Source of the DNA: an uncultured Candidatus Peribacteria bacterium
GTDB taxonomy: Bacteria > Patescibacteriota > Gracilibacteria > UBA1369 > JACRIC01
Direction of reading: 5' to 3'
Length of the DNA: 41,506 bases
Assembly (NCBI GenBank): GCA_964617145.1
Contig: CAZTVN010000003.1
Coordinates: 1 to 41,506, forward strand
In this document: piece by piece, positions 7,749 through 40,657 of the stretch
How the letters are laid out: each line of letters opens with the position of its first letter
How positions within the stretch are numbered: position 1 is the first letter of the stretch
Notes under the pieces: model-generated
Database searches by the model: none
The model's input: only the letters and a program-made list of their open reading frames with translations
Told to the model about the DNA's origin: nothing
Made by a program: the position numbers and the translations under genes

Positions 7749-7767
7749 ACAATTTTGCATAATAGGA

Positions 7768-7846
7768 GAGGGCGTCGGCATACACATTTTTTGCGCTTCA
7801 AGGAATAAAGACGCTTAAAAAATGGTATGCCGCCGCCCTCTTTTTT
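7768..7846. terminator. Long rod hairpin, bidirectional terminator between the small ORF and ligA
   Basis: gagggcgtcggcatac (7768-7783) pairs with gtatgccgccgccctc (7825-7840) with 1 mismatch. Inner catttttt/aaaaaatg also pair. A T6 run follows at 7841-7846. Confidence 0.7.
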
Positions 7847-7858
7847 ATACTGAAGTTT

Positions 7859-9955: not shown

Positions 9956-10420
9956 ATGGATCCATCTCATACAAATCCTGGAAAACGCGGAGCTGTCTCG
10001 ATCTTCCAGCAGATTCTTCAAAAGAAATACAATCCTCTCTATGACGAGGCTACCAATGACCTTCCTATTGATCCAAAAGTTCAAGCAGAGGTTATCAATA
10101 AGCCTCAAGAAGATCCTGAAGGCGTTCTTCAAGAAGATGAAGCTTTTTTACAAAACGTTATTCACCTTATTGAAATCAAAAAAATTCAATTACATCTTCC
10201 CTCATCGCTCATCAATCAAGAAGTTTACGCGAAACTTTCGGAAGATATTCAAGGAAAAATCGATATGGAAGCTTTTAATATTTTGGCTTCCATTCGACAA
10301 ATTCATGGACTTTATATGCTCGGGCACACTCATAGCTACCAGATCAAAAATCTCGGTCATCTTGTACGCCTTCAAAAAGAACGCACTGAGGGCATACAGG
10401 GTGATGTATTTATTATTTAA
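9956..10420 (+). CDS. Hypothetical protein (ORFan operon gene 1)
   Basis: 154 aa. No TM segment or signal peptide. Tightly spaced with the next ORF (5-nt gap). Confidence 0.55.
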   Translation: MDPSHTNPGKRGAVSIFQQILQKKYNPLYDEATNDLPIDPKVQAEVINKPQEDPEGVLQEDEAFLQNVIHLIEIKKIQLHLPSSLINQEVYAKLSEDIQGKIDMEAFNILASIRQIHGLYMLGHTHSYQIKNLGHLVRLQKERTEGIQGDVFII

Positions 10421-10425
10421 TTTTT

Positions 10426-11970
10426 ATGGCAGAACTCGAAGCACATAATAGGCCATCTGAATCACAGCACTCTGATAATTTTGAGGACTCTGAGCGACCA
10501 GATAGTTCTTTAAATCCTTCCCGACAAGATTTGGAACCTCAAGGAGCTTTTCCAGGAAGAGCCGCCACCCTTGAAAAAATACGTCAAGATGAAAGGCTTG
10601 ATGCGGCACGGGAGAGACTTATCGATTGTCTCAAAGATGAACGTATTTCCAAATATCTTCCTGATGTTAAAGCCAATCCTGAAAAACCTCTCGAAGATAT
10701 TTTACAAGGTAAAACACTTGAAGAAATTACATGGTATGCCCGTGAACACCTTTCACAGGCCGATTCCACTGACCTTATGCGAGTAGAACTTGATTATGGC
10801 CCGGGATTTTTGGCCTTTCTTTTTCTTGATTCAACTTCTGGTCAGATGCCGCTTTTTGCCGCGAATTCCGATGAAACCCAGAATGATTATGCCGCCGGGT
10901 CGGAATTTGGCGTAGATTTTCGCGGCAATGATCTTGCTGAAACGGAAATCGGGGCAGGAGACATCTTGCCGGCTTATGTTCGTTTTATTGTGGTACGTTC
11001 CTCAGATGGTGAAGAATGGATCGGAGAGAGAGGGCTTGGATCCGCTCACAGCGGGAAGCGCGTTGGTTATTTTAATGTAGAAAATGGCGATTATATCGCC
11101 ATTTTTAGTAAGGATATTATCAGGATTCCCACGAATGATGATTTTCAACGTTTGGGCGTGAAGGATTCAACTCTTTATTCCGATGATGCGAGTGTTCAAC
11201 GATCTTCAAAAGAAGAATATGATGTCAAAACATCGTATATTCATGACATGGAAACAGAACAGAAGCAGTACGCTGAACGCCGAGAAATACAAGCTCAAGA
11301 TTTTACAGGGTATTTTAACGAATACTTTGAAACCAATGTTAGTGTTTCAGGTCAACTTGAGAGTGGCCTTGAGGATGCTGCAATTCGTGAAATGGCTTCA
11401 AAACTTTTGAATAACTCTTCTCAAGATATCGATTTTTTTGTCCAAGCTTTCAAAGCCAATCGCGACATCGAATCTAGGCAGAATTATGGGATTTTGGGCC
11501 AAGCTGTTGTTTCGAGGAAGTATATGGGACAAAGGGCTCTTGGCGCTTATCAAATCATGCCGGGGAATTGGGTGAGTTGGAGCCATGATGCTATCGGTAA
11601 AAGCCTTTTAGACGGCCAAGATATTGTGAAGAGTGAACATTTCGATAAAGATATCGCTCTTCCCTCCGCTAAAAATCAAGATATCCTCGCTTTGGTGCAA
11701 CTTGCTGAAATCATGAATCATTATTCTCCTAATCGATCTCGTTTTTCTGATCAAGATATCGCGGCTATGATGTCGGTTTGCTGGTATGGGAATATGGCTA
11801 ACGGCAGACCTGAAAGTCCAGAAGATATCTCAACCACTCGTGCCCGTATTTCTGTCAATGGTCGAAGCCGAGCTTTGATTTCTCCTCGTGAGCATGCCGA
11901 TAAATTTGTGGCAAGTATGTTTGGAGGTGGCAACGCTCCAAAACGTGGTAATCGTCGTCGATCCCGTTAG
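10426..11970 (+). CDS. Hypothetical protein with a C-terminal SLT/lytic-transglycosylase-like motif
   Basis: 514 aa. DIESRQNYG followed by GAYQIMPGNW resembles the catalytic E-S ... G-x-x-Q-I-M-P block of SLT domains. Acidic N-terminus, no signal peptide, basic tail RGNRRRSR. Confidence 0.6.
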   Translation: MAELEAHNRPSESQHSDNFEDSERPDSSLNPSRQDLEPQGAFPGRAATLEKIRQDERLDAARERLIDCLKDERISKYLPDVKANPEKPLEDILQGKTLEEITWYAREHLSQADSTDLMRVELDYGPGFLAFLFLDSTSGQMPLFAANSDETQNDYAAGSEFGVDFRGNDLAETEIGAGDILPAYVRFIVVRSSDGEEWIGERGLGSAHSGKRVGYFNVENGDYIAIFSKDIIRIPTNDDFQRLGVKDSTLYSDDASVQRSSKEEYDVKTSYIHDMETEQKQYAERREIQAQDFTGYFNEYFETNVSVSGQLESGLEDAAIREMASKLLNNSSQDIDFFVQAFKANRDIESRQNYGILGQAVVSRKYMGQRALGAYQIMPGNWVSWSHDAIGKSLLDGQDIVKSEHFDKDIALPSAKNQDILALVQLAEIMNHYSPNRSRFSDQDIAAMMSVCWYGNMANGRPESPEDISTTRARISVNGRSRALISPREHADKFVASMFGGGNAPKRGNRRRSR

Positions 11971-11991
11971 CATTTTTTTTAATTTTTTTCT

Positions 11992-13638
11992 ATGAGTGCA
12001 AATTCAGCTTCTCAACCATCATCTCAGCCAACTTTGGATCCTGTTGAAGGTACGAGTAATTATGATGATCTTCAGGGAAAAATCAATGCTCTTTTAACCC
12101 ACATTAAAGACGAACGTGAAAAAAGGACTCTTGAAACTGCCCGTGAATTAGTTTCTCTTGCACAAAGCTTGCCTACTCTCACTTCTGACCAAAAGGAAAA
12201 ACTTGGATACTATCAAAATCGAGTTGAGGCTTTAACTCTTTTTCAAGAAAAAAAAGGCGGGATTGATTTTGAGGGAATTTCTAGTGACGATACCGAACCT
12301 TTACTGCGTAATGGATTTGTTGATGCTTATACACAACTTCCCGTACTGGATAGGAAAATAAAGCCAGAACATATTTCGCGATTTAGAGAGGCAATGCCCA
12401 ATCTTTTTTTTATGGCTCTTTCTGAGGCTCATAGTAGTGGGGGGGTATTCAAGGCTATTGTGGTAAGTGAAGTATCAAAATGTTTAGAAGCTGCTTCCTT
12501 TAAAAATTGGGCACTTTCTGTTGGCTTAGCTTCCAAAAACGAATCTGGCCAAATACAATGGGCTGACCAACTTTTTGAAAAACAAGAAGCTACCGAAGAA
12601 GAAAGAGAACGTGCTCGGATGTTAGAGGCTATTCCTAAACTTATTACTGCTATTCGCGCTTTTCCTAATACACAGAATGGATGGAGTTTGAGAGAGGCTG
12701 ACCAAACTCTATTGGGAAAAATTGAAAGCAAAAATCTTCAGACTCTTGCTGATGCAGAACTTAAAGATTACGACCAGAAGCTTACCGCTATGCGAGATTA
12801 CTATAGCGGTATGCAAAAAAGGTATACCGATATTTTGGGCCGTGCCCCAACACTTGCAGGAAATCCCAGCATAACGGCAGAAGATAAAAAATCTTTGGAG
12901 GAAATTAAAGTCGGTTCAAAGGATGCCCTCCTTGCCCATAACGAAAGTGGTCTTAAGGAATGGGAATCTAAATTCACCGCACTTGAAAAAAAATATCAAG
13001 TCGTGCCAACAAAAGAATCCACTGAAAAAGGTCTTTTTGCTCTTATTTTAGGAGGATTTTTATCGGCGGATATTATAGATCGTTTAGCGGAATTTATTCG
13101 TCCATTTTTTGGAGAAAAGACGTATGGTGTCATCGCTGATGCTCTTGCTTTAGCTGCCAATCAAAAGATGGTTACTGACTCTGAAATTCTTGGCCAATTT
13201 GGCGTTGTTTCTGATAGCAGTGGGAAATATGGAAAAAATGTGGAATATATCAAATTGCTTTCCATGACTCCGGAAGATATGTTAAAAACACATTTTGCTG
13301 TTACCGAAGACCATCTTATCGAAGATTTAAAAAATCCTCAGATGACTCTCAAATTTTATCTCGATACTATGGGTGCCGATGTTTCTTCTTATGCAGGAGT
13401 CCTTTCAAGATTAACTACTTTTCTTCAACCTCTTGTTTCTGAAATGAATCCGAGTGAACTTGGTCAATCTCTTTTCACCTTTCTCGAGAGTCGAAAAGCG
13501 AAAGTTGCTCTTGCTGCTTCACAAAGGGCAGGAGGAGGGGCTGCTACTGGTACTGGGGGGAATCCTCCTTCAGATGGTGATGCTGATTCTGGGACTGAAG
13601 GCAGCGGCACAGATTCCACTGATTCAGCTGGTGACTGA
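11992..13638 (+). CDS. Hypothetical protein (ORFan operon gene 3), Gly/Ser/Asp-rich tail
   Basis: 548 aa, apparently helix-rich. One hydrophobic patch (GLFALILGGFLSADII). C-terminal low-complexity GGGAATGTGGNPPSDGDADSGTEGSGTDS. Confidence 0.6.
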   Translation: MSANSASQPSSQPTLDPVEGTSNYDDLQGKINALLTHIKDEREKRTLETARELVSLAQSLPTLTSDQKEKLGYYQNRVEALTLFQEKKGGIDFEGISSDDTEPLLRNGFVDAYTQLPVLDRKIKPEHISRFREAMPNLFFMALSEAHSSGGVFKAIVVSEVSKCLEAASFKNWALSVGLASKNESGQIQWADQLFEKQEATEEERERARMLEAIPKLITAIRAFPNTQNGWSLREADQTLLGKIESKNLQTLADAELKDYDQKLTAMRDYYSGMQKRYTDILGRAPTLAGNPSITAEDKKSLEEIKVGSKDALLAHNESGLKEWESKFTALEKKYQVVPTKESTEKGLFALILGGFLSADIIDRLAEFIRPFFGEKTYGVIADALALAANQKMVTDSEILGQFGVVSDSSGKYGKNVEYIKLLSMTPEDMLKTHFAVTEDHLIEDLKNPQMTLKFYLDTMGADVSSYAGVLSRLTTFLQPLVSEMNPSELGQSLFTFLESRKAKVALAASQRAGGGAATGTGGNPPSDGDADSGTEGSGTDSTDSAGD

Positions 13639-13679
13639 TAAATTGGCCTCCATTACATTTTTCTTTATATTCATTTCCT

Positions 13680-14225
13680 ATGACTCCTAGCCCTTCCAAT
13701 CCATCATCGACCAATCCTTTTGTAGGCAGCAATACTCTCCCAGCGATTTCTCCTCAACAAGGCGACCAACAAAATTCACAACCATCAAATACTGATTCCA
13801 CAAACGCAACTTCGAATAGCCAAACAACTCAGACATCGGGGCAAAGCTCATCTAAGCCTGCTACGGCCAATAATTTTGACATCCCTGATCTTGTCAAAGA
13901 AAAATATGCCGATCTCATTCCAATGATTTTGAAAACGGAATCCATGAATGACGAAGAGCGTCAATATTGGTTCCATATTTTGCCGATTATGACCCCCGAT
14001 CAGATCGAAAAGTTTCGAGGAATCCTCGTAAATGAAAGCCAACAACTCTCAAAACTCGATGAGGAATATCAAACGGAACTTAAAAAATTAACAGGGAAAC
14101 CTTCGAGTTTTGATCCTGAAAAAATGCAAGAAAAAAAACGCGAACTCAACGAGGAAGAATCCAAGGAAGAATCAAAAGAAAAGGCTCAAGAAGAAGAAAT
14201 TTTGAAACAACTGTCGGATATTTAA
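13680..14225 (+). CDS. Hypothetical protein (ORFan operon gene 4)
   Basis: 181 aa. S/T/N/Q-rich N-terminus and a charged, coiled-coil-like C-terminus. Confidence 0.6.
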   Translation: MTPSPSNPSSTNPFVGSNTLPAISPQQGDQQNSQPSNTDSTNATSNSQTTQTSGQSSSKPATANNFDIPDLVKEKYADLIPMILKTESMNDEERQYWFHILPIMTPDQIEKFRGILVNESQQLSKLDEEYQTELKKLTGKPSSFDPEKMQEKKRELNEEESKEESKEKAQEEEILKQLSDI

Positions 14226-14320
14226 AACAGCAGTCGTACATGATAGACTGCCCGATTTGGTAGCGCGGTTTTCGAGAAAAATTCCCGTAAGCTTGTTTTT
14301 AAAAGCTGCGAACAAGGTTG

Positions 14321-14485
14321 GGACACTCTGAAAAAAACCCTTTCGACTGCAATTGCAAGCGTTCGGCTAAAAAATGGCTCATGCCTTCTTGCCGTATCTT
14401 TCTCTGATACGCCTTCGTCGGCCTTCGCCATTTTCGCCAGAACGCTTGCAATTTCGTAACCGAAATGGCATTTTTCAGAGTGTCC
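14321..14485 (+). repeat. Long family-1 rod hairpin (165 nt) between convergent genes
   Basis: ggacactctgaaaaa (14321-14335) pairs with tttttcagagtgtcc (14471-14485), 15 bp perfect. aattgcaagcgttc (14351-14364) pairs with gaacgcttgcaatt (14440-14453), 14 bp perfect. The left arm aligns with 41462-41506 (ctgaaaaa..actgcaatt..ttcggct). Confidence 0.75.
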
Positions 14486-14489
14486 TTTG

Positions 14490-21185: not shown

Positions 21186-21346
21186 AGTGGGCAAGGGAAT
21201 TTTTTCTCCTCAAAGGCTCCGCATTGACCGTACCAAAGGTCTCACTCCTTCTGATTTTACGATATAATCCGCAAAATCAGATAGTCATTCGACCTGTACG
21301 GTAACCCAATGCTTTGCCATTTGTCGAAAAAATTCCCTTGCCCACT
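21186..21346 (+). repeat. Rod hairpin element sharing a conserved core with 36523-36737 (candidate structured RNA or MITE relative)
   Basis: 21-bp perfect stem: agtgggcaagggaattttttc (21186-21206) pairs with gaaaaaattcccttgcccact (21326-21346). Core blocks ctccgcattgaccgt (21217-21231) and atcagatagtcattcg (21276-21291) are shared with the 36.5-kb copy. Confidence 0.75.
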
Positions 21347-21451
21347 TATCAAGTTTGTACTCAAAAAAAATGAAACCGTACGCCCCCTTCATATTATCGT
21401 TTTTTTGCATTACAATACAGAAGAAATTTGTAACTTCTTGCGACTAATTCA

Positions 21452-22021: not shown

Positions 22022-22639
22022 ATGAAAAATGATACGCAAAAATTCGATACTATCCTTGAGTCTATTCTTGATGGAAAAAATATTGAGCTTCAATCATTGG
22101 ATATGTCCTCCCTCTCTCAAGAAGAACATCAACTTTTGCTTTTTGCTCGATCTATTCGAGGAATATCTCAATATGATCATGCCAAATCTTCTCTTGCGCA
22201 CAATCGTATTGAACAAAAATTACGTCATTCACTCCAAAAAGAAAAGACAATTCTTCTTCAAGAGAAAGATGCTCTTTCAGGTTTTGCGGCAATTGCCTCT
22301 TCTTTTCATTCTCTTTTCAATTTTCGTTTTGCGCCCATTGTTGCTACCATTGGCCTTATTGCTATTTTGACTGTTATGGGAACTCCTTTCAGCAATCGTA
22401 CATCTATTACTCCTCAAGATGAAGTCATGGCTCAAGAATTGATAACCAAACTTTTGGCTTCAAATAGCGCGCCAATTGCAGAAGAGATGAAAATGGATGA
22501 GTCATTTACTCCTATTGAAATGGACGATCTTGAAGTCTCCATTGAAATTATGAACCTATCCTCTTCTTTAAAAGATTTTTCTCCAGAAGACCTTGAAAAA
22601 GAATTTAATACGTTTCCTGTTGACAGTGAATTTCTTTAA
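22022..22639 (+). CDS. Putative anti-sigma factor / single-pass membrane protein
   Basis: 205 aa. Its start abuts the sigma gene stop. One TM segment (FAPIVATIGLIAILTVMG). The call rests on position only. Confidence 0.45.
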   Translation: MKNDTQKFDTILESILDGKNIELQSLDMSSLSQEEHQLLLFARSIRGISQYDHAKSSLAHNRIEQKLRHSLQKEKTILLQEKDALSGFAAIASSFHSLFNFRFAPIVATIGLIAILTVMGTPFSNRTSITPQDEVMAQELITKLLASNSAPIAEEMKMDESFTPIEMDDLEVSIEIMNLSSSLKDFSPEDLEKEFNTFPVDSEFL

Positions 22640-22670: not shown

Positions 22671-23585
22671 ATGATCTCCCTTACTTTCAAACGTTTCTCC
22701 CTGACCTCTTTTCTTTTCTCTTGTGCGATCCTAAGTCTTATCATGCTTGCCCCTTCTCATGTTTTTGCTCAAGGATTTATTGGTCAAAAAGAAAATGTGC
22801 AAAAGGCGAACGTAGCATCTCAAGATCTTGAAAAAGTTTTGAAAAAAAATGATGCCATTTCGCAAACCGCTCAAGAGCTTAAAAATATGCTTGAACAAAA
22901 TGGGCAGAAGGTCAGAGACAAAGAAACCTTTTTGACGAAAATGAGAGAATTTTTGTCACTTATCACGGATAATAAAATAACCTATTTAGGTGTTCTTAAT
23001 GACCGCATAAACAATAATAAAGCCATTACAGAAACAGAAAAAAATACGGCTCTTAATCTTCTTGATACCGATATGACATTTTATCAAGAAAAACAAGCAG
23101 CCATTCAGTCCTTAAATGACTGGGAAAACCTCAGGAAGATTGGAAATGAGATTCAAAATTATTCTGAGAAAATTACTCCTCGCCTCCGTGGACTTGCCGG
23201 CCTTCGACTTGTTCAAGAAGCGACGGCACTTGTTGAGCGTGCCAAAAAAATTAGTGCAAAATTATCTGAAAATATTACCAAGTTTGAAAGGCAGAGTTCG
23301 GTTCAAGGAGTAGAGAGTGTTTCATCTGAACCATCATCTGGTTCCGATACAAGTGAATCTTTTAATTTTGACGCGGCTCTTGAAGATTTAGATGCCTTTG
23401 TCGCCGATGCGCAGCAGAACGTGACGCAAGCCAAAGAAAGTTTTATGGAGATGGTCGAGCTTAAAGACTCAACAACCGATCAAAAACCTATAGAATATTT
23501 AAAAGAAGCTCACCTCGATCTCAAAAGTGCCCGTAAAACTTCTGTTACGATCACGATTGAACTCATTAAGAGTACCATAGAGTAA
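22671..23585 (+). CDS. Secreted coiled-coil hypothetical protein
   Basis: 304 aa. Signal peptide ending HVFAQG. Charged and helical throughout. Confidence 0.55.
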   Translation: MISLTFKRFSLTSFLFSCAILSLIMLAPSHVFAQGFIGQKENVQKANVASQDLEKVLKKNDAISQTAQELKNMLEQNGQKVRDKETFLTKMREFLSLITDNKITYLGVLNDRINNNKAITETEKNTALNLLDTDMTFYQEKQAAIQSLNDWENLRKIGNEIQNYSEKITPRLRGLAGLRLVQEATALVERAKKISAKLSENITKFERQSSVQGVESVSSEPSSGSDTSESFNFDAALEDLDAFVADAQQNVTQAKESFMEMVELKDSTTDQKPIEYLKEAHLDLKSARKTSVTITIELIKSTIE

Positions 23586-24386: not shown

Positions 24387-24546
24387 TTAGATAGCGGCAG
24401 ATTGCTTTTTCCTGAACGCTTTCGTCTACTATTAAATAAAAATTTTTTTTACTTATCCGAAAGCTCGATTCTCGCGAAGCATCAACCTTTTCTCATTCTC
24501 TTGCTTCGCTCGAAACGTCAGTCAAAAGCAATCTGCCGCTATCTAA
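24387..24546 (+). repeat. Long rod hairpin element (160 nt), divergent family-1 member
   Basis: 23-bp perfect stem: ttagatagcggcagattgctttt (24387-24409) pairs with aaaagcaatctgccgctatctaa (24524-24546). Inner pairs are gcgaagca (24474-24481)/tgcttcgc (24502-24509) and ctgaacgctttcg/cgaaacgtcag. The internal ctttcgtctactattaaat resembles other family members. Confidence 0.7.
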
Positions 24547-29085: not shown

Positions 29086-29940
29086 CTATCTCACCTCATC
29101 AAGACGTTGTGGTTGAGAAACATACTTGGTTACATCTCTAAACTCTTGTTCCCATTCCCCATTTATTTGTTCTGGTGTTAAATTGGCATTTACAGCTGTT
29201 CTCCCCAATGCTGCTAAAAATTTGGCTTCTATCCGTAGCATAGCTCCTTTCAAATCACTCAATATCCCTCCTTTGTTCATTTCTTCTTCCCATGTTTTTG
29301 GCAATCTTATTCTTGTTCTTGTATTCTTATTAAGTTTTAGGTCTTCTCTTCTAGAATGAGTAACTTCTAGACCTGTTTCAGCTTCTCTTATATCCACTTC
29401 GTTAGATCTCGTTATTCCTCTTTCTTTTTCCAAAAGTTCAGTTGTAAATCTTCTTTGTCCTCCTTGATCTTCATTTATTAGCATAGTAGCTATTGTTCCA
29501 TTTTCACTAGAAAATACCTCATTCCAAGGTGGAACCGAGGCTTGTACAGATATTCCCTCCGGCGAGTGACGAACAGTACACTCTTCGTCGTCTCTCAACC
29601 ATCTTCTCTTTAAACCGCTCACCGTATGTGGTAAAAATCGGTCTTTTATGGGATTTTCTCCACTTGCTAAAACGTCTCCACACACTTGATCGATGAGGGC
29701 TTGTACCTTTCTCATTGATGCTTGAAAATCTGGAGGTAATTCCTCAAGCATTGGAATTTCCGGAGCTTGAGCGATACCGTTTTCTACGGCACCAACTTGA
29801 GTGACGAGCTCTTGCCCATCTCCAGATAATTCTTGGCTTGGAGTTTCTGGTTTATCCTGACAACCTGCTACTACCGATGCGGCAAGGCTTAAGGAAGCGA
29901 CAAAATTTCCGAAATTTCCAAGCTTGTTCATAGAATTCAT
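29086..29940 (-). CDS. Putative lipoprotein, function unknown
   Basis: 284 aa. Signal peptide with lipobox VVAGC. Confidence 0.55.
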   Translation of the reverse strand: MNSMNKLGNFGNFVASLSLAASVVAGCQDKPETPSQELSGDGQELVTQVGAVENGIAQAPEIPMLEELPPDFQASMRKVQALIDQVCGDVLASGENPIKDRFLPHTVSGLKRRWLRDDEECTVRHSPEGISVQASVPPWNEVFSSENGTIATMLINEDQGGQRRFTTELLEKERGITRSNEVDIREAETGLEVTHSRREDLKLNKNTRTRIRLPKTWEEEMNKGGILSDLKGAMLRIEAKFLAALGRTAVNANLTPEQINGEWEQEFRDVTKYVSQPQRLDEVR

Positions 29941-29976: not shown

Positions 29977-31884
29977 TTATTTTTTACTTTTTGTCAAGGC
30001 TTTGTAGTATGATGCTCTTTCTCTATAGCTTGATGCCTCTTTTGGATAGACGACGGCGAGCAATTCGTAGAGATTTGTCGCCGCCTCCCTGTTTGGTGTT
30101 TGTACGGTATAGTGAATATTGTTTTTGAGTTGAAATTCGTACTTTTCCAGAAGATCGAGCGTCATGCCTTTTATCTTGTCTATTTCATCTTCAGAGCCGA
30201 TTTTTCTCGCCATATCAATGAAATTCCAATAATACCAAAAGTGATTCATGGGATTTAAGTTTAACGCCTTCTTAAAACTCGAAAAAGCGTCCCTATATTT
30301 TCCCTGACTTCTTTGGATTTCCCCGAGTCTTTCCCAGCCTTCGGAATCGATAGGATTTAAGATTAAATGTTTTTCCAGCGCTATTTTTGCGAGATCGATA
30401 TTTCCTTCAGCCAAAAAAGTCTGAAAACGTTTCATAAAATGTTCTCGAGGGAAGAGCGTTTTTTCATAATATTCGAAATACATTTCTCCTTTTTGAAAAT
30501 CGTTCGCGCTTTCAGATTGATAGGCTTTTTTCTCAAATTGAGTGAGTTGCATCTCAAAAATGCCGTTTACGATCAAAATGCCAGCAATCAATAAGGCGAC
30601 GTAGGATCGTTTTTCCCCTTGAAGATGTTGAAAACTTATCATACTTCGCACAGAGGCGAGCAAAATAAAAAACAGAAGAATATTTACGATGAAATTCAAA
30701 TTGTAATCGATTTGATTATGGAGAATGGCTCCCAAAAGTGAGCTTGAGATAATCAGCGCTTCGTATTCATTAAAATTTTCAAGAAATCGGATTCTCTTTA
30801 TCATCGTTCTGGCCAATATGATGAAAAATCCTAACAAAAATATGGCTGCGATGAGTCCTTCTTCTGAAGCTATTTTCAGCAAGATATTGTGAGCGTGATC
30901 GGATGTTCCGAGAAATGTTGTCTGTACATGCGGATAGGCAAATCGGAAACTATAAGGACCGTAGCCGAAAAACGGCTTTTCAAGAGTGAGAGTGATCGCA
31001 CCTTTCCAAAATTCTATGCGTTCTCGTATGGATGTTATATTTTCTTGATGCTGAAAAGTAATTTTTTCTTCAAAAGTGGTTATATCGTGTGTTTGTCCTC
31101 TTATCAGGTTCGATCCTTGAATTATTAAAAATGTGAGCACGGTAATGAGTGCCACTTGTGTGAAAAATCTTTTTTTCCACCTGTAAGGGCGGATGGTGAA
31201 AAACAAAAAAAGACTTTGCAATATGAAAACCAACCATCCTCCTCTTGAATAGGTGAGATAGAGAGCGCTTATTATGAAGGCGGTAGCTAGTGGTGCGAGG
31301 GTTTTTAATTTTCCCTTCAGAAGAGCTAGTGACAAAGGCCAAACCATAATCAAAAACAGCGCTGCGCCATTTGGCCAAAGTTCCCCTGAGTTTTCTAAGT
31401 TTATAAATGTTGCGAAAAAGCGAGGAGAGGGATGAGTAAAATAAAAATAATATCCGATTCCTACGGCAATAATGGAAATGGACAGTATGCCAGGAAGCAA
31501 CCATGATCTGTAAAAAGAGGTATGAGCCAATGAAAGATAGATCGTAATAGATGAGGCGAATACCAGGATTTCAGAAAATCCGTAATTTTTTGTTTGTGAT
31601 AAAAAAAAGGCTGTTATAAGACTTAAGAGAAATCCTAAAAGGAAAATTTTTTCCTTTTTTGATTCTTCTCGTTTCATCCGAAATGCTACCAGCGCTAGAG
31701 GCAATGTACTAAACGCGAGTAAGAGTACGGGGAATAAGTCCTCGCCTTCATCATATTTTTTTGAGTGAAAAAGGAAAAGAAAGTATGCAAAAAGGGAAAT
31801 TAAAAGAATCGGTGGAATTTGTGTGAAATTTTCTCGGATAGTTAGGGCCTGTGCACACAAAGTTTTTACAGATGGAAGAGACAT
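29977..31884 (-). CDS. O-antigen ligase/polymerase (Wzy_C)-like membrane protein with C-terminal TPR repeats
   Basis: 635 aa, more than 10 TM helices. YSRGGW loop block and C-terminal TPR-like repeats (GWERLGEIQRSQGKYRDAFSSFKKALNLNP). The first 14 codons lie inside the 31843-32117 element. Confidence 0.75.
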   Translation of the reverse strand: MSLPSVKTLCAQALTIRENFTQIPPILLISLFAYFLFLFHSKKYDEGEDLFPVLLLAFSTLPLALVAFRMKREESKKEKIFLLGFLLSLITAFFLSQTKNYGFSEILVFASSITIYLSLAHTSFYRSWLLPGILSISIIAVGIGYYFYFTHPSPRFFATFINLENSGELWPNGAALFLIMVWPLSLALLKGKLKTLAPLATAFIISALYLTYSRGGWLVFILQSLFLFFTIRPYRWKKRFFTQVALITVLTFLIIQGSNLIRGQTHDITTFEEKITFQHQENITSIRERIEFWKGAITLTLEKPFFGYGPYSFRFAYPHVQTTFLGTSDHAHNILLKIASEEGLIAAIFLLGFFIILARTMIKRIRFLENFNEYEALIISSSLLGAILHNQIDYNLNFIVNILLFFILLASVRSMISFQHLQGEKRSYVALLIAGILIVNGIFEMQLTQFEKKAYQSESANDFQKGEMYFEYYEKTLFPREHFMKRFQTFLAEGNIDLAKIALEKHLILNPIDSEGWERLGEIQRSQGKYRDAFSSFKKALNLNPMNHFWYYWNFIDMARKIGSEDEIDKIKGMTLDLLEKYEFQLKNNIHYTVQTPNREAATNLYELLAVVYPKEASSYRERASYYKALTKSKK

Positions 31885-32117
31885 ATTTTGTTCAGTTCAA
31901 GAAACGACGACGAAGGTGTGCCCAAAGGCACATCGAGGAGGAGTAACGCAGAAATGGGCAAAATATGTCTCTTCCCTTCGGGTTGAACAGGAACCTGTCA
32001 GGTCTTCTTTGTTGCTCGTCGCTTGTGGAGCGCAATGGCGAAACAGCGCTCCTCGCGCCGCGAATCCGACAACGTTCCTGTTCAACCATCGCAAAAACTT
32101 TGTGTGCACAGGCCCTA
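31843..32117. repeat. 275-bp element bounded by 25-bp perfect inverted repeats (family-2 box) enclosing a GC-richer multi-hairpin core
   Basis: tagggcctgtgcacacaaagttttt (31843-31867) pairs with aaaaactttgtgtgcacaggcccta (32093-32117). Internal perfect stems: 31874-31890/31959-31975 (17 bp), 31981-31994/32074-32087 (14 bp), 32027-32033/32046-32052 (7 bp). Confidence 0.8.
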
Positions 32118-32320: not shown

Positions 32321-32392
32321 TGCCGAGGGGCGGAATTGAACCACCGACACGAGGATTTTCAGTCCCCTGCTCTACCACTGAGCTACCTCGGC
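32321..32392 (-). tRNA. tRNA-Phe (anticodon GAA)
   Basis: The reverse complement reads GCCGAGGTAGCTCAGTGGTAGAGCAGGGGACTGAAAATCCTCGTGTCGGTGGTTCAATTCCGCCCCTCGGCA. It folds as a full cloverleaf with a CUGAAAA anticodon loop. CCA is not encoded. Confidence 0.92.
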
Positions 32393-32430: not shown

Positions 32431-33012
32431 TCAATGTTTTCTCCTCTCAAATTCTCTCAATAGTTCCGAAAATCGCACGGATTTTTCATTCAAAAGCACG
32501 AACAGGTGATAGATGAGATCGACGCTTTCTTCGATGAGCCTCTTATGTGACTCGCTCTTTGCTGAGTGAATCACCTCAATACTTTCTTCTTCCACTTTGT
32601 CACATATTTTTTGTAAACCGGCATCAAAAAGTTTACTGGTATATGATTTTTTCGGCCGCTTATTCTTTCGTTCAGCTATCAGCCTATACAATTTTTCCAA
32701 AAGATGAGTCGAAAGTACTGATTTTTTCCTTCGACTGAAACATGTTTGCGTATTTCGATGACATGCCGCTCCTTTTGGCTCAACCAAAATAAGTAAAGTG
32801 TCTTGATCACAATCCAGAAATATTTTTTTTACTTTTAAAATATTGCCACTCGTCTCACCTTTCATCCACAATCTTTTCTTCGATCTCGAATAAAACCATA
32901 CTTTTTTCGATTTTTTTGTTCTTTCAAGCGCTTCTTTATCCATATATCCAAGCATCAATACTTCGAGAGTCTGAATATCTTGAATAATGGCTGGAATAAG
33001 TGTTTTTTTCAT
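32431..33012 (-). CDS. hisIE: Bifunctional phosphoribosyl-AMP cyclohydrolase / phosphoribosyl-ATP pyrophosphatase
   Basis: 193 aa. HisI block (WFYSRSKKRLWMKGETSGN, DCDQDTLL, ACH) followed by a HisE-like helical C-terminus. Confidence 0.85.
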   Translation of the reverse strand: MKKTLIPAIIQDIQTLEVLMLGYMDKEALERTKKSKKVWFYSRSKKRLWMKGETSGNILKVKKIFLDCDQDTLLILVEPKGAACHRNTQTCFSRRKKSVLSTHLLEKLYRLIAERKNKRPKKSYTSKLFDAGLQKICDKVEEESIEVIHSAKSESHKRLIEESVDLIYHLFVLLNEKSVRFSELLREFERRKH

Positions 33013-33015
33013 ATT

Positions 33016-34488
33016 TTACATTCTTATTGAAATACCATTCTTTCTTAAAAATTTCTTTACCTTGGCTATCGTGACCTCTTGAAAATGCAACATGCTCGCC
33101 AAAAGTACGCTGTCTGCTTTCCCCTTTTCAAATGCTTCCAGAAGATGCTGCAATGTTCCAGCTCCTCCTGAGGCGATCACTGGAATGTTTACCGATGTAC
33201 TTACTTTTTCTATTAATTTTAGATCATACCCTTGCTTTATACCATCTCTGTCCATAGAAGTTAAAAGGATCTCTCCTGCTCCTAATTTCTCCACTTTTTT
33301 TGCCCAATCTATCGCGTCAAGCTCGGTCTCCTCACTTCCACCTTTTATAAACACTTTATAATTTTTTCCAACTTTTTTCGCATCGATAGCCACCACTATG
33401 CACTGCGATCCAAAATTTTTGGCTCCTTCCTTAATGAGCTTTGGATTTAATATCGCAGCGGTATTTATCGTTATCTTATCAGCTCCACATTTCAGTATTC
33501 GTCTCATTTCTTCTACGCTTTTTATACCTCCTCCCACCGTAAAAGGAATCGATACTTTCTTTGCTACTTTTTCGACCATACGATAGATGGTGTCACGATT
33601 TTCCTTACTCGCGGTTATGTCGAGAAAAACAAGTTCGTCTGCACCCTTTTTTGAATATTTTTCACCCAACTTGCCAGGATCACCGGCGTCTTTTAAGTTG
33701 AGGAAACGCTTCCCTTTCACTACTCTGCCATCTTTTACGTCGAGACAAGGTATAATTCGTTTTGTTAGGGCGCTATTTTTGAGCGCTTCGCACAGGAGAA
33801 TTTTCCCTTCATAAAGAGCTTTTCCAATAATTGCTCCTTCAATGTTTAATTTTTTTAATATTTGCAAGCTTCTCAAGTTCGATATTCCTCCTGATGCGAT
33901 CACTTTTAATCCGAGATTTTTTAACTGCGAAATCATCTCAAAGTTTGGTGATGTTAATGTCCCATCTCTTGAGATGTCTGTGGCGATAATTTCACTGATT
34001 CCTATTTTTTTCAGATTTTTAGCGAATTTTCTATATTCGAGAGCGGTATTTTTTTGCCAACCATTCGTTACCACATTGCCATTTTCGATATCGATGGCGA
34101 CTATAATCGATTTTGCTCCGTAAAAATTTACTAAGTTTTGTAGAAATTTCTGATCAGACGCCGCGACAGTCCCTATCACGATTCGCTCAATGCCGGAATC
34201 GAGATAGAAACGCGCATCTTTCTCCTGCCGTATTCCTCCACCAACTTGCAGAGGAATTTTCACTTTTTTCCTCATTTTCGCTATCAAATTTTGATTTACA
34301 GGATATCCAGCCTTAGCACCATCAAGATCAATAACATGCAACATCGGAGCTCCTTGCTTTGCAAATTTTTCAGCCACAAAAATCGGATTTTCGTTGTATA
34401 CTTTTTTTTCTTCAAAATCACCTCGTAACAGGCGCACGCATTTGCCGCCCATGATGTCAATTGCAGGAATTATCAACATAAAGTACAA
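33016..34488 (-). CDS. hisAF: HisA-HisF fusion protein (ProFAR isomerase fused to the imidazole glycerol phosphate synthase cyclase subunit)
   Basis: 490 aa. The N-terminal half has [15 protein letters not shown] and [11 protein letters not shown] (HisA). The C-terminal half has [16 protein letters not shown] and [10 protein letters not shown] (HisF). The true start is probably the ATG at 34479 (MLIIPAIDI). Confidence 0.85.
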
Positions 34489-35114
34489 AAATTACGTAAT
34501 ATTTTCATACCTTGCTCGCCTGATTTTTCGGGATGAAATTGTGTGCCGAAAAAATTTTTATACTGAAGCACTACGGGGAATCTGATCTCATAATCTGCTT
34601 CGGCAATAATATTTTGCTGTAGCGCATCGAAATAATATGAATGCACAAAATAAAAATATGCATCGTCTTTGATGCCTTTTGTGAGCTTGGAGGTTTTTTT
34701 TAATGATACTCGATTCCAGCCCATGTGCGGAATTTTTAATCCTTTTTGCTGCGGCAATTTTCTCACTCGACCTTTCATAATTTTGAGACATTCCACATTA
34801 CCTTCATAAGAAAATTCGGCCAAAATCTGCATTCCAAGACAAATACCAAGAAACGGGACATTGAGTTTTTGAATGAAATTTTTGATTTTTTGTAGGTGTT
34901 CCATCGCTTGAGAAGCCGCACCAACACCTGGGAGGATATATCCGTCGTATTTGGGAAGAGTCTGAAAAACGTGCTTACTCCTGCAATTTTCTGACAAAAC
35001 CATATTTTCCCGAGGCTCTTTATCAAACTTTTCGAATGACACTCCAATTTTGGAAAGAGCATTTTCAATACTTTTTATATTTCCCGCACCGTAGTCAATT
35101 ATAGCGATTTTCAT
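34473..35114 (-). CDS. hisH: Imidazole glycerol phosphate synthase glutaminase subunit
   Basis: 213 aa. [10 protein letters not shown], nucleophile block FLGICLGMQ, and FVHSYY. Confidence 0.85.
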
Positions 35115-35150
35115 AGTTTTCTTTTTAAGATTTACGAATTTTAAGAATCT

Positions 35151-36020
35151 CTATATAACAATCTGTTCGATTGGCGTGACTAAAATATCTCTTCCACCGG
35201 CTCTTTTCAGCTTTTCGATAAACTCCCAAAGTATTTTTTCTGGAATTACCGAGTGGATAGCCACCATTTCCGTATTTGCCAAAGGCATAACTGTTGGTGA
35301 ACTCATGCTCGGCATAATGCTTTGTATCTTTTTGAGCGCTTTCCGAGGGGCATTCAACATCACATATTTCGTTGAGTCAGCTCTTATACTCGCTTGAAGC
35401 CGCATGAGAAAATTTTCGATATTTTTTCTTTTTGCCTTCTCCAATTTTGGACTTTGAATCAAAAGAGCCTCTGATTCAAAAATTGTTGCTATTTCTTTTA
35501 AACCATTTGTACGCAGTGTTGTCCCCGTTGATACAAGATCGCAAACGGCATCGGCAATTCCCAGCATCGGAGCGATTTCCACCGATCCTTTGATACCAAT
35601 AACATTTCCTTTGATATTTTCCTTTTTTAAAAAATCATTCAGCGAACGAACATAAGATGTTGCAATTTTCTTGCCACTTAAATCCTTTATTTTTTTTATG
35701 GGACTTTTTTCCGAAACGGCTAGAGAAAGTCGACATTTTCCAAAACCCAGGCGTTCAAGAATCGTAACCTGAACGCCCTTTTCCTTCAGCATATTCTCAC
35801 CCACAATCCCAAGATCACAAACCTGATCTTGCACATATTCAGGGATATCATCGTCACGAAGCCATAAAATTTCAAGATCAAAATTTTTTGATCGCGTAAA
35901 AAGACGATCTTTGTACATTTCAAATTCTATGCCCATGTTTTTTAAAAGTTGCAGGGTTGCTTCGGTCAGTCGACCAGTTTTTTGAATGGCAAGTTTTATA
36001 TTTTTTCCACTTCGTTTCAT
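35151..36020 (-). CDS. hisG: ATP phosphoribosyltransferase (long form)
   Basis: 289 aa. LAIQKTGRL start, DLVSTGTTLR block, and a C-terminal regulatory domain of the right length. Confidence 0.85.
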   Translation of the reverse strand: MKRSGKNIKLAIQKTGRLTEATLQLLKNMGIEFEMYKDRLFTRSKNFDLEILWLRDDDIPEYVQDQVCDLGIVGENMLKEKGVQVTILERLGFGKCRLSLAVSEKSPIKKIKDLSGKKIATSYVRSLNDFLKKENIKGNVIGIKGSVEIAPMLGIADAVCDLVSTGTTLRTNGLKEIATIFESEALLIQSPKLEKAKRKNIENFLMRLQASIRADSTKYVMLNAPRKALKKIQSIMPSMSSPTVMPLANTEMVAIHSVIPEKILWEFIEKLKRAGGRDILVTPIEQIVI

Positions 36021-36113
36021 GGTTTTCTTTGTGTTAAGAGAGGAAGACTTTGTAAGGGATGTGCTGTAAAAATATGCTTACTACTGGTAATTTTCACTAA
36101 GCTCCTAAGATAT

Positions 36114-36143
36114 AAAAAAAATCGCTTTTCCTGGAGCGATTTT
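36114..36143 (-). terminator. Rho-independent terminator after the TrpR-like gene
   Basis: atcgct (36121-36126) pairs with agcgat (36135-36140). The flanking A7 on the + strand gives a U-tract on the minus-strand transcript. Confidence 0.6.
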
Positions 36144-36167
36144 AAGTGGATTTAAGTTTCGATACAT

Positions 36168-36467
36168 TTATTTTCCTCGTCGTTTCATGACGAACTTATA
36201 TCCACCCATTCCGTGATGGAACCAATGGGCGACCCTTGTAACGGTTGCTGTGCTCGCACCAGTTTTTTTGCTGATTTCTCGATACGTTTCATTGTTAGCA
36301 ACGCGTTTTGCTACCTGAAATCTTTCTATCATGGCTTTGAGTTCGGACAGCGTACATAAATCTCTTAAAAAATTACGGCATTCTTTTTCGGTTTTGAGAT
36401 TTAATAGAGCTTTTAAGAGCTCTTTCGCTTCTTTTTGATTTAAAAAATTTTCATTCATTGTTTTCAT
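36168..36467 (-). CDS. TrpR-like DNA-binding protein, YerC/YecD family
   Basis: 99 aa. The block ETYREISKKTGASTATVTRV..GMGGYKF matches my recollection of the YerC/YecD HTH. Confidence 0.75.
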   Translation of the reverse strand: MKTMNENFLNQKEAKELLKALLNLKTEKECRNFLRDLCTLSELKAMIERFQVAKRVANNETYREISKKTGASTATVTRVAHWFHHGMGGYKFVMKRRGK

Positions 36468-36522
36468 GTATTAAAACGCTATCATGTTATCATGTAATAA
36501 TTTCATGTCAAGTTAAAAATTG

Positions 36523-36737
36523 GTAACTGCTCACAATGGTAAAAAGTGGGCGGGGCGTTTCCCTTTCGTCCTGCCTCCGCATTGACCGTCCATCCGCTCA
36601 TTTCTTCTGATAACGCGATTGGCAGACGCGTTATCAGATAGTCACTCGCGGGGACGGTTCCCAATTGCTCGGCAATGTCCTTAAGGGAAACGCCCCGCCC
36701 ACTTTTTTACCCCCGTTGATTCCTTGTGAGCAGTTAC
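36523..36737 (+). mobile_element. MITE-like 215-bp hairpin element with 14-bp TIRs and an 8-bp target-site-duplication-like direct repeat
   Basis: TIRs: gtaactgctcacaa (36523-36536) and ttgtgagcagttac (36724-36737). The direct repeat aaaaattg flanks it on both sides (36515-36522 and 36738-36745). Inner 23-bp perfect stem: 36541-36563 pairs with 36685-36707. The core is shared with 21186-21346. Confidence 0.7.
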
Positions 36738-36753
36738 AAAAATTGCATAAAAA

Positions 36754-38382: not shown

Positions 38383-38925
38383 ATGAAATATTCCAAGCAC
38401 GAACTCAAAAAACTTGAAAAGCAGGTTGGATCGAAAGAAGAACTCAATAGATTGTTACGAAATCAGGCTTTGAAATCTTCTTTTGGTATTGGAATAAGCA
38501 TTATTGTTTCTATTGGACTTGTTGCCCTTATTATCTACGCAATATTGAGTCGCTCTTCTTATAAACCGTATTCTTCGGGTCCTGTCCACTGGCATACGAA
38601 GTTAGCCTATAATCTTTGCGGTGATCGAACTTTTTTGCCTGAAGCTGTGGAGGGTCACGGATGGCTTGTTCATGGCCATATGGATAATGAGATACACATC
38701 GAAGGCACTATAGGCAGTGAAGATGATATTCGTTTGAAACGATATTTTGAGAATTTCCAGATTCCTTTTGGACCCGATCGCATCGGACCGTATAAAAATG
38801 GTGATGTATGTCCTTCAACCGGAGTTCCCGGAAAATTGAAAGTTCTCATTAATGGAAAAGAAGAAGCTGATTTTTTCAATCATGTGATGAAAGATGGAGA
38901 TAAAGCAGAAATTATTTTTGAGTAA
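38383..38925 (+). CDS. Membrane-anchored His-rich hypothetical protein
   Basis: 180 aa. One TM segment. His clusters VHWH and EGHGWLVHGHMDNEIHIEG. Confidence 0.5.
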   Translation: MKYSKHELKKLEKQVGSKEELNRLLRNQALKSSFGIGISIIVSIGLVALIIYAILSRSSYKPYSSGPVHWHTKLAYNLCGDRTFLPEAVEGHGWLVHGHMDNEIHIEGTIGSEDDIRLKRYFENFQIPFGPDRIGPYKNGDVCPSTGVPGKLKVLINGKEEADFFNHVMKDGDKAEIIFE

Positions 38926-38950
38926 AAATATACGAGTTATACAATTCTTG

Positions 38951-39155
38951 AGTACGTAAAATTACGGTACAGGTGTCGAAGTATTCTTAGAAAAACACGA
39001 GAATAGTTTGGCTCAAAACCCGATTCGTCGCTTAAAAAATGCAAAACCGGAATTTTGCATTTTTTAAGGAGTGACTCATCGCATTTTGACAGCCAAACAA
39101 TCTCTATAGTTTTTCTTAAGAATCTTCCACACCTGTGCCGTAAAAACCCTGTACT
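38951..39155 (+). repeat. Long rod hairpin element (205 nt), divergent family-1 member
   Basis: The 35-nt arms 38962-38996 and 39109-39143 pair with 2 mismatches and 2 single-nt indels, and end in GAAAAAC / GTTTTTC. The central 16-bp perfect hairpin is 39031-39046/39053-39068. gtttggct/agccaaac also pair. Confidence 0.7.
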
Positions 39156-39214
39156 TACCATCGTGAAACTCTAAAATTGGCTTTTTAAAAGGTTTTTTTC
39201 GTGTTACAATTGCA

Positions 39215-39574
39215 TTGATGAAAACTTTCAAACATGTTTTATACACATTTTTGCCTACTACGCTTTCTTTGCTGATTTTTTCGGGCTTTTTTTTGCATTC
39301 TTTTCATGTGCTGCCACCTTTAACCAGTGAGCTTAAGCTTCTCAACACCCAAAATGTTTGTTGTACGCAGTGTCCACAGGAAAATGAATGTGTATCCGAC
39401 TCAAAAAGTCATCAGATTGATATTCTGAATGTACCGTTTCAGCATGATATTGATTTTAAGCCTTATTCGTCAAGGTCAGACATAAAAACGACTTTTGAAG
39501 TTCCTGAACGTTCTTTACTTACATTATTTGCTTTTAAGACGCCATTTTATCTCTCTGAAATACAGAGAGAATGA
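39215..39574 (+). CDS. Small Cys-containing membrane protein, hypothetical
   Basis: 119 aa (the ATG at 39218 is the likelier start). One TM segment and a CCTQCPQENEC motif. Confidence 0.45.
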   Translation: MMKTFKHVLYTFLPTTLSLLIFSGFFLHSFHVLPPLTSELKLLNTQNVCCTQCPQENECVSDSKSHQIDILNVPFQHDIDFKPYSSRSDIKTTFEVPERSLLTLFAFKTPFYLSEIQRE

Positions 39575-40189: not shown

Positions 40190-40657
40190 ATGATTTCTTT
40201 TGTTCGAAAATATTTTGGATGGTTGGTCAGTCTTTTGCTTATTTTTCTTGCTAGTATCTCAATTTTTGTTCGTTTCGAAATGAGTATTCAAACTCAACAC
40301 ACCGAACTGAATACAAGCTCTATTTCTTTGATAGATTCTACTTCATTTGATTTTGGTGTTATTCCTCGTGATCGCAAAGTCGAACATATTTTTTCTCTTC
40401 AGAATCCGGATTCTACTCCGTTAGAAATTAAAAAAATTGTTACTTCTTGTGGTTGCACTACGGCAGAACCTTTTATTGATGAGAAAAAACAAACTATGCC
40501 TTTTACGCTTGCTTCTGGTTCTACTTCTCAAATTCGCGTTATTTTTGACCCTCTAGCCCATGATTCACGCGGCGATACTTATAGAGCTGTACGCATAGAA
40601 ACCAACCATCCTCAAAATCCTTTTATAGTTATCAATCTTCACGCTTATGTCCAATGA
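40190..40657 (+). CDS. DUF1573 domain protein, membrane anchored
   Basis: 155 aa. TM anchor. FSLQNPDSTPLEIKKIVTSCGCTT is the canonical DUF1573 CGC block. Confidence 0.7.
   Translation: MISFVRKYFGWLVSLLLIFLASISIFVRFEMSIQTQHTELNTSSISLIDSTSFDFGVIPRDRKVEHIFSLQNPDSTPLEIKKIVTSCGCTTAEPFIDEKKQTMPFTLASGSTSQIRVIFDPLAHDSRGDTYRAVRIETNHPQNPFIVINLHAYVQ

Follow-up and report, generated by a model that had tools for sequence, protein, structure and literature searches.

Paired intergenic hairpins with a conserved core in a Candidatus Peribacteria genome are candidate foldback repeats

What kind of element holds a core sequence constant while the stems around it are rewritten pair by pair? Two spacers in a 41,506-nt stretch of contig CAZTVN010000003.1 (assembly GCA_964617145.1), from an uncultured Candidatus Peribacteria bacterium, raise this question. 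The spacers contain two related elements, here called A (positions 21186–21346, 161 nt) and B (36541–36707, 167 nt), each of which folds on the minus strand into a single long hairpin. An initial annotation had proposed the pair as a candidate structured RNA with a conserved core and compensatory stem changes. Our preferred interpretation, which we hold tentatively and at somewhat less than even confidence, is that A and B form a lineage-specific family of foldback repeats maintained to fold as a single strand. With the same reserve, we regard this family as one of several unrelated long-hairpin elements spread through the spacers of this genome.

Alignment, pattern search and folding all upheld the shared blocks of the two elements and the four helices that differ in sequence while keeping their pairing. 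The block CTCCGCATTGACCGT is identical in both copies (A 21217–21231; B 36575–36589). This block and ATCAGATAGTCAYTCG (A 21276–21291; B 36633–36648) each have two matches in the window, A and B only, even when three mismatches are allowed. In B the second interval holds the conserved block ATCAGATAGTCACTCG, which includes the 5′ side of a G·A motif described below. TCAYTYCTTCTGAT and CCCAAT(T)GC are likewise common to both copies, and blocks of 12–15 nt are identical between elements lying 15 kb apart. Against shuffled sequences, the local alignment of A with B gave z = 14.4 when the copies were aligned in the same orientation, against z = −0.5 when they were opposed, indicating that the copies are homologous and share an internal asymmetry. 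The homology stops exactly at the hairpin tips, AGTGGGC/GCCCACT, beyond which the flanks are unrelated (…ATTG and TATC… at A; …TAAAA and TTTTT… at B). Neither copy has a target-site duplication, wherever the boundary is set within 2 nt of these tips.

The stems tell a different story from the blocks. In A the outer stem is a perfect 21-bp pairing of 21186–21206 with 21326–21346, and in B a perfect 25-bp pairing of 36541–36565 with 36683–36707; only the terminal 7 bp, AGTGGGC, are shared, and 9 of the next 14 positions differ. Further in, ACCGTAC/GTACGGT of A corresponds to ACCGTCC/GGACGGT of B, and AGGTC/GACCT to CCGC/GCGG. A helix formed by CTGATTTT…/…AAAATCAG in A is formed by CTGATAACGCG/CGCGTTATCAG in B, again with pairing kept. 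Replacement is nearly complete in the outer stem past its 7-bp end, in the inner AGGTC/CCGC helix and in the distal apical helix. A protein-coding reading was rejected, as the shared blocks lie in different frames in the two copies; the 22-residue open reading frames starting with GTG in A and B agree only at MG… and …R(M/V)TI. We also rejected the variable stems as guides for targets in the window, where only low-complexity 10–12-mers match.

Folding predicts one continuous hairpin with small internal loops for each copy. On either strand the z scores of A and B range from −10.5 to −12.7, and none of 200 shuffles folds as well. The minimum free energy of A as RNA is −86.5 kcal/mol on the minus strand versus −75.8 on the plus strand (z about −12.6), and that of B −102.2 versus −93.9 kcal/mol. 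A consensus structure from the two-sequence alignment comprises 53 pairs, every one a standard pair in both copies; 16 pairs carry changes on both sides, and in three more a one-sided change converts the pair to or from G·U. When the 3′ partners were slid by 1–3 columns as a control, only 41–47% of positions paired and 0–5 double-changed pairs appeared. Judged from these sequences, the pattern cannot arise by independent random decay of two palindrome copies. The initial annotation had taken the covarying helices as evidence of selection on a fold. Part of that claim stands: the fold is real, and the stems change while remaining paired. With two sequences, "covariation" says only that both copies are palindromic in the same register, and the alignment is arbitrary in the most variable stem segments. 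Because there are only two copies, selection on an RNA cannot be separated from selection on a DNA hairpin or from concerted correction. An RNA and a single-stranded DNA hairpin read by a protein, the latter an alternative that the annotation had already offered, are equally compatible with two copies.

The predicted energies favour one strand, and the minus strand makes sense as the one that folds. It is better than the plus strand by 10.7 (A) and 8.3 (B) kcal/mol with RNA parameters, and by 3.5 and 1.7 kcal/mol with DNA parameters. All four wobble cells of the consensus structure are G·U on the minus strand, equivalent to A·C on the plus strand. Unpaired minus-strand positions are 76% (A) and 79% (B) purine, with zero and three cytosines, in the order A > G > U >> C; on the plus strand these positions are pyrimidines.

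Read on the minus strand, the blocks first described as unpaired become, in both copies, a regular motif beside a short inner helix: a tandem G·A loop, two pairs, a second such loop (GA/GA in A, GA/AA in B), then two further pairs and a bulged A. In A, sequence and fold together give stem / GA·GA / AU-GU / GA·GA / CU-AG, with GAAUGACUA on the 5′ side (21282–21290) and AGGAGUGA on the 3′ side (21242–21249) of this double tandem G·A motif; in B the corresponding sides are GAGUGACUA (36639–36647) and AGAAAUGA (36598–36605). The two pairs between the G·A loops are A-U/U·G in A and G·U/U-A in B, a small compensation in its own right. Further down the hairpin follow a GG(U/A) bulge and a GGA-containing loop. 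The block CTCCGCATTGACCGT, which reads ACGGUCAAUGCGGAG on this strand, spans helices P3 and P4 and the GGA internal loop. The G·A motifs are symmetric 2 × 2 loops and do not form a kink-turn. Resemblances to the T-box, 6S RNA, signal recognition particle RNA, the K-turn and the sarcin-ricin loop found no support in Rfam or in the loop geometry.

The annotation's view that the element belongs to no known family held up. Rfam 15 gave no match to A or B at the gathering score or at E ≤ 10, where the noise consisted of MIR6135 (23 bits against a threshold of 99) and fragments of U6 and U4. A two-block pattern scan of 185,579 species genomes returned 30 matches. Each is a coincidental or coding match in which the blocks are wrongly spaced, and 20 fixed bases should give roughly 30 by chance alone. 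The same scan gave six matches in JGI metagenomes and one in IMG/VR, none with the 65–66 nt of a true copy, and four of them measure 59 nt, as do Pseudomonas coding matches in the genome scan. Searches of plasmids and phages with blastn found no match to A or B. A covariance model (R1) built from A and B and run with filters off recovered the two copies in the window at 189–197 bits, followed by generic hairpins at 31 bits or less. The collection of homologues that the annotation had proposed for a covariation test did not get beyond two sequences: the window, three syntenic relatives and the public collections searched yielded no further copy.

The three relatives, L040 (GCA_036681025.1, contig JAXDEL010757252.1), L041 and L042, share with the window the order aroD-ychF and then relA or mnmA, which in L040 and L041 extends to sortase, ligA and dnaX. 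The covariance model found nothing like A or B in them (best score 12 bits). Upstream of aroD, L040 and L042 have no spacer at all, the gene overlapping or abutting its predecessor, and L041 has one of 72 nt. Spacers in all three are compact, and none holds a comparable long hairpin. The absence of both A/B-like elements and long hairpins from these relatives points to a lineage-specific gain of hairpins in the genome studied here.

How exceptional are A and B within their own window? They do not stand alone: the spacers of the same 41.5 kb hold at least five more long hairpins, all unrelated to A and B in sequence and without counterparts in the syntenic relatives. Repeat search and folding on the minus strand identified hairpin C (14320–14486), of the same class as A and B by its fold, and hairpin D (24387–24546), with a 23-bp outer stem and two inner hairpins. 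Hairpin E (31843–32117) has a 25-bp perfect outer repeat, 26–28 pairs when folded, enclosing two hairpins of about 100 nt; hairpin F (38960–39143) is about 184 nt long; and a shorter hairpin of 89 nt lies at 7760–7848. The z scores of C, D and E against shuffles are about −10 to −14. Hairpins of at least 160 nt occupy 6 of the 14 spacers longer than 60 nt, the 89-nt hairpin lies in a seventh, and long hairpins occur between convergent, divergent and tandem genes. By local alignment C–F show no similarity to A or B, and the only match among them is a weak one between C and D (z 3.1).

These hairpins nevertheless resemble A and B in style. Unpaired minus-strand positions of C and D are 78% and 86% purine with almost no C, as in A and B, which makes a minus-strand purine bias of 76–86% in four hairpins of three sequence families, regardless of the direction of the flanking genes. 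D has a GA/GA loop and C a GAAG/AUGA loop; a shared C-GA…GA-G loop motif was rejected as a sign of homology among the hairpins, being too short. The minus strand is preferred by A, B, C and D; E weakly prefers the plus strand, and F and the 89-nt hairpin are neutral. D lies between two plus-strand genes, so that its favoured strand is antisense to both. In D and E an outer hairpin seems to hold further hairpins in its loop, and C, D, E and F all stand at gene 3′ ends. The G+C content is 44–55% in A, B, C and E, 37.5–39% in D and F, and 27–35% in hairpin-free spacers. Throughout the window the plus strand is rich in C (negative GC skew), which suggests that the favoured hairpin strand may be the strand exposed in replication.

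The two copies occupy dissimilar gene settings. As the annotation had noted, A stands between two divergently transcribed genes, aroD (minus strand, start 21133) and the gene for an extracytoplasmic function (ECF) sigma factor (plus strand, start 21452). A functional connection with the sigma factor, which that placing had invited, is unlikely: the minus strand, which folds better, runs opposite to the sigma factor gene. On the minus strand A lies 52 nt upstream of the aroD start, with no consensus promoter between them. B lies between an acyltransferase gene (minus strand, stop 36754), of which it is 47 nt downstream, and a TrpR-like gene (minus strand, start 36467). Both copies are co-oriented with the adjacent minus-strand genes, and both have amino-acid biosynthesis operons as neighbours, aroD at A and TrpR-like-hisGH(AF)(IE) at B. 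A promoter scan found a promoter-like site between B and the TrpR-like/his operon (TTGACA-16-TAACAT with an upstream TG; 36484–36511, minus strand, 10 of 12 matches), which places B upstream of the likely promoter and not in the leader.

B is itself enclosed by a 17-bp inverted repeat found by repeat search, with arms at 36520–36536 and 36724–36740, and on the minus strand this repeat is followed by U5. When B was deleted in silico, the arms came together in a terminator-like hairpin of 14–16 bp, predicted as …TTGTAACTGCTCACAAGGAATCAACGGGGGTA/ACCATTGTGAGCAGTTACC…. This suggests that B was inserted into the loop of a pre-existing terminator hairpin of the acyltransferase gene. By position, then, A resembles a 5′ untranslated region (UTR) structure and B an insertion in a terminator loop. 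B, 3′ of a gene, has A5 before and T5–6 after its stem; A, between two gene starts, has no T-run. A terminator scan was silent at both copies because their loops exceed its limits, and no promoter or terminator signals are shared by the flanks of A and B.

Several promoter-like words within and beside the copies were also considered. A carries a perfect TATAAT in its apical loop (21263–21268) that is absent from B. B carries GGAAC-N18-TCTGA on the minus strand (36650–36611), absent from A, with the spacing of sigma-E-type ECF promoters such as rpoH P3. An internal or single-stranded-DNA promoter was rejected: each of these two words occurs in one copy, the TTGACC in the conserved block has no −10 element at 16–18 nt, and the scans, set beside these three words read by eye, report no internal site. 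TGAAAC, similar to an ECF-type −35 element (21370–21376), precedes the ECF sigma gene by about 75 nt, with no CGT-type −10 element at the usual spacing of 16–17 nt.

Four observations lead us to favour foldback repeats: the abundance of long hairpins in the window, their absence from the syntenic relatives, the nesting of hairpins within the loops of others, and homology that ends at the hairpin tips. Under this interpretation, a protein would read the conserved asymmetric core (two tandem G·A motifs, GG bulge and GGA loop) on the folded strand, and would not read the stems. The stems would then need only to stay paired and would be free to change in concert, with the 7-bp termini AGTGGGC/GCCCACT kept. 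Spread would probably resemble that of REPINs or of IS200/IS605-type elements, through recognition of a folded single DNA strand, with no cut-and-paste at terminal repeats and no target duplication; the loops of existing hairpins are a possible favoured landing site. Once in place, a copy would be co-transcribed with its neighbours and act as a large RNA hairpin, B extending a terminator and A forming a 5′-UTR structure of aroD-ychF.

Several points weigh against this interpretation. Only two copies are known, both on this 41.5-kb contig, where empty sites, target-site duplications and genes for a transposase, HUH enzyme or recombinase are all lacking. A conserved core with variable outer stems is the reverse of what REPINs and miniature inverted-repeat transposable elements (MITEs) show. 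The divergence between A and B is far above that of typical repeat populations and is in keeping with ancient paralogues held by purifying selection, as would suit an RNA gene. The arms contain no REP-like local palindromes (arms alone, z −2.2 to +0.7). RNA energy parameters give the minus strand a far greater advantage than DNA parameters do, the agreement in orientation among the hairpin families is not statistically significant, and the repeat enclosing B could simply belong to a larger structure and not to a prior terminator.

The main rival, a serious one although we give it somewhat less than one chance in three, is that A and B are structured non-coding RNAs made from the minus strand, whether as a pair of paralogous small RNAs or as elements acting in cis on mRNAs. 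Their conserved purine-rich internal loops would bind a protein or another RNA, and compensatory substitutions would preserve the helices. It accounts well for the retention of every pair through 16 double changes with identical loops, and for a minus-strand gain of 8–11 kcal/mol with RNA parameters compared with 2–3.5 with DNA parameters. The make-up of unpaired minus-strand bases is typical of structured RNAs, and the heavy stem divergence suggests long purifying selection. The co-orientation with neighbouring genes, A lying 52 nt 5′ of aroD and B 3′ of the acyltransferase gene, and the presence of an amino-acid operon beside each copy point the same way. Other features fit it poorly. There is no Rfam match, perfect basal stems of 21–25 bp are unusual for a riboswitch or small RNA, and no switchable expression platform is obvious. 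The contexts differ, a 5′ UTR in one case and a 3′ UTR or terminator in the other; a strong promoter-like site separates B from the his operon; and no promoter or terminator signals are common to the two flanks. Relatives with conserved synteny lack a leader at aroD. That five unrelated hairpins of similar build share the window asks for a general explanation, and one of them, D, favours a strand antisense to its flanking genes.

A dedicated riboswitch or leader, in particular, is unlikely because the contexts differ, the basal stem is perfect with no alternative pairing seen in the minus-strand folds of A or B, a promoter-like site intervenes between B and his, and the relatives have no such leader. 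The annotation's structured-RNA reading is weakened by the placing of A 5′ of aroD and of B in a terminator-like hairpin 3′ of the acyltransferase gene, and survives as the non-coding RNA rival just described. The differing positions of the copies and the abundance of hairpins are better matched by foldback repeats than by a dedicated regulatory RNA gene.

More speculative, and improbable at perhaps one chance in five, is that this poorly sampled lineage carries an undescribed class of strand-specific long hairpins with a conserved, asymmetric, protein-read G·A core, in which stems are free to vary or serve as specificity modules and of which A and B would be the first family seen in more than one copy. 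Such a class might be a mobile element that moves as a hairpin without terminal repeats or target duplications and lands in hairpin loops; alternatively it might be an abundant structured RNA class with a shared protein partner.

The remaining explanations fare much worse. Classical MITEs, derived from DDE transposons and moved by cut-and-paste through their terminal inverted repeats, would share with A and B a size of about 160 bp, terminal inverted repeats, an intergenic location and raised G+C content. Several hairpin families in one genome and the conserved 7-bp AGTGGGC tips would also fit. We nonetheless consider this origin very improbable: neither copy has a target-site duplication, the terminal repeats are conserved over 7 bp only although transposase sites should be best kept, and the window has no transposase gene. 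The whole element is a hairpin, not its ends only, and random decay would break stems, yet no pair is broken.

Invertons, in which the 21–25-bp repeats would be recombinase sites and a segment of about 118 bp would flip to redirect transcription towards surface-structure genes, are slightly less probable again. The geometry of the window's hairpins suits them, with perfect inverted repeats of 21–29 bp flanking 100–225 bp in spacers, and many neighbours encode envelope functions. The interior is itself palindromic, so that inversion would change little, and the copies have no internal promoter in common. Divergent repeats around a conserved interior are the reverse of invertons served by one recombinase; the window has no recombinase gene, and A has a single orientation in independent assemblies.

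There is only a slight chance that A and B are ordinary local terminators or mRNA-stabilizing hairpins whose similarity is incidental or due to one duplication. B has the A5 and T5–6 flanks and gene-end position of a terminator, and C, D, E and F share the gene 3′ ends. The sole ordinary gene-end hairpin here, a perfect 17-bp stem at 41337–41372, is without a U-run, and U-tracts may often be missing from terminators in this organism. Against this, A lacks a T-run and is placed where two genes diverge, a position with nothing to terminate; the terminator scan, whose loop limits both copies exceed, reports none; and identical 12–15-nt blocks and asymmetric loops 15 kb apart (z = 14) are not required of a terminator. 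Least probable of all are double-stranded operators of a dimeric regulator, for instance the TrpR-like protein acting on aroD and TrpR-like/his: B does lie just upstream of the promoter of the TrpR-like gene, A upstream of a gene of the aromatic amino-acid pathway, and the blocks form nested inverted repeats, but operators give no reason for 16 compensated changes, strand asymmetry or half-sites 20–60 bp apart, and the repeats span 160 bp, not 16–20 bp.

Which known systems do A and B approach most closely? Imperfect palindromes of 100–170 bp that lie in spacers, are co-transcribed and form RNA hairpins with effects on termination, processing or stability include ERIC/IRU, Correia (NEMIS), RUP, BOX and the Rickettsia palindromic elements. 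In such families the terminal repeats are conserved, a TA duplication is frequent and similar copies are numerous; several families may inhabit one genome. A and B are likewise palindromic spacer hairpins of about 160 nt, but they have only 7 bp of conserved end, no duplication and strictly compensated stems.

REPINs, doublets of REP sequences that form hairpins and are moved by the tyrosine HUH transposases RAYT or TnpA(REP), are closer in several respects. Compensatory changes across the hairpin are common in REPINs (PMC3116915), and TnpA(REP) recognizes folded single-stranded DNA through bulges and a flanking tetranucleotide (PMC8266576). Like REPINs, A and B are intergenic, consist of two inverted halves that pair into a long hairpin with compensatory changes, keep asymmetric features and lack target duplications; recognition of a folded single strand, as in REPINs (PMC3116915, PMC8266576), would complete the likeness. 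They also begin with GTGG, similar to the GT[AG]G tag, but in A and B this GTGG (within AGTGGGC) is part of a long stem. REPINs measure about 70–110 nt, with conserved 16-mer ends and a variable spacer, whereas A and B, at 160 nt, keep their centre and vary in the outer stems. A single REP is itself a palindrome of 20–50 nt, whereas the arms of A and B do not fold alone. REPINs exist as tens to hundreds of near-identical copies, whereas A and B are two known, much-diverged copies, and no RAYT gene was seen in the window.

The repetitive hairpin-forming elements and double-hairpin elements of mitochondrial genomes, some of which lack flanking duplications, comprise several unrelated families and are absent from relatives with the same gene order (PMC2800124). 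A and B resemble them as hairpins that occupy the spacers of some lineages and are missing from syntenic relatives (PMC2800124), but the mitochondrial elements are organellar, not bacterial, and usually shorter.

Integron attC sites are imperfect palindromes with variable stems that keep structure over sequence and are recognized as one folded DNA strand through extrahelical bases, all points of likeness. A and B, however, have no RYYYAAC/GTTRRRY core sites, cassette array or integrase, and end in AGTGGGC/GCCCACT. They also share long identical core blocks and lie among housekeeping genes with promoters of their own. Among RNAs, 6S RNA, small signal recognition particle RNA and Y-RNA-like molecules are single hairpins of about 160–190 nt with conserved internal loops and covarying stems, some with two paralogues per genome. 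Against membership in these groups, A and B show no Rfam match at E ≤ 10, no large central bubble as in 6S RNA and no domain IV motifs of the signal recognition particle, and a perfect basal stem of 21–25 bp is atypical. Assignment to the described families of repeat elements fails on arms that are not REP palindromes, on the absence of target duplication, on 7-bp ends and on the lack of attC core sites.

If A and B are foldback repeats, they would be hairpin repeats whose conservation is the reverse of that in REPINs and MITEs, with an asymmetric core conserved and stems free to change, and this pattern would point to an undescribed mode of recognizing folded single strands. Nearly half of the window's spacers hold such hairpins and the relatives have none, which offers a clean before-and-after comparison of the invasion of compact genomes and bears on the co-option of such elements as terminators or UTR structures. 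If instead the non-coding RNA rival is true, the pair would make up a new family of structured RNAs, in a lineage of phylum rank where hardly any RNAs have been characterized. For annotation, elements of the A/B type are easily mistaken for riboswitch candidates on "covariation" alone.

The window is otherwise ordinary chromosome, with dnaX, ligA, sortase, mnmA, relA, ychF and aroD, the ECF sigma operon, an ABC transporter, a Wzy-like gene and a his operon headed by the TrpR-like gene. Genes for envelope functions are common in the neighbourhood (an SLH protein, the sortase, the Wzy-like ligase, the acyltransferase and the ECF sigma factor). None of the window's proteins is a transposase, HUH/Y1 enzyme, RAYT, reverse transcriptase, recombinase or integrase. 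The his operon (32431–36467, minus strand) encodes a 99-residue TrpR-like protein of the Trp_repressor family, hisG, hisH, a 490-residue protein and hisIE; the 490-residue protein has two His_biosynth domains and is a hisA-hisF fusion. A tRNA gene at 32321–32392, the sole Rfam match in the window at the gathering threshold, follows the operon. Directly 3′ of the ECF sigma gene, in the position of an anti-sigma factor, lies a gene for a 205-residue protein (22022–22639). This anti-sigma candidate has no homologue in a database of 5.8 billion protein clusters and no Pfam or NCBIfam match. Eight other window proteins (within 9956–14225, 22671–23585, 29086–29940 and 38383–39574) have no family match in either library, and a ninth (40647–41291) has an NCBIfam match far below threshold and nothing else.

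Logan contigs that encode identical proteins are 100% identical to the window and show no polymorphism, and two Logan assemblies have A in the same orientation as here. The Logan runs SRR12113422 and SRR12113385 contain the organism. These contigs run through A and D and break at B and F: L043 ends at 36577, L044 starts at 36711 and L045 ends at 39011. The breaks look like low coverage at hairpins and not like repeat branching, because a Nextera adapter stands at one contig end. The closest relative of the YchF protein is 63% identical, and the organism is, by such comparisons, nearly an orphan. Some of the top YchF matches are labelled by NCBI as Candidatus Peregrinibacteria or Gracilibacteria.

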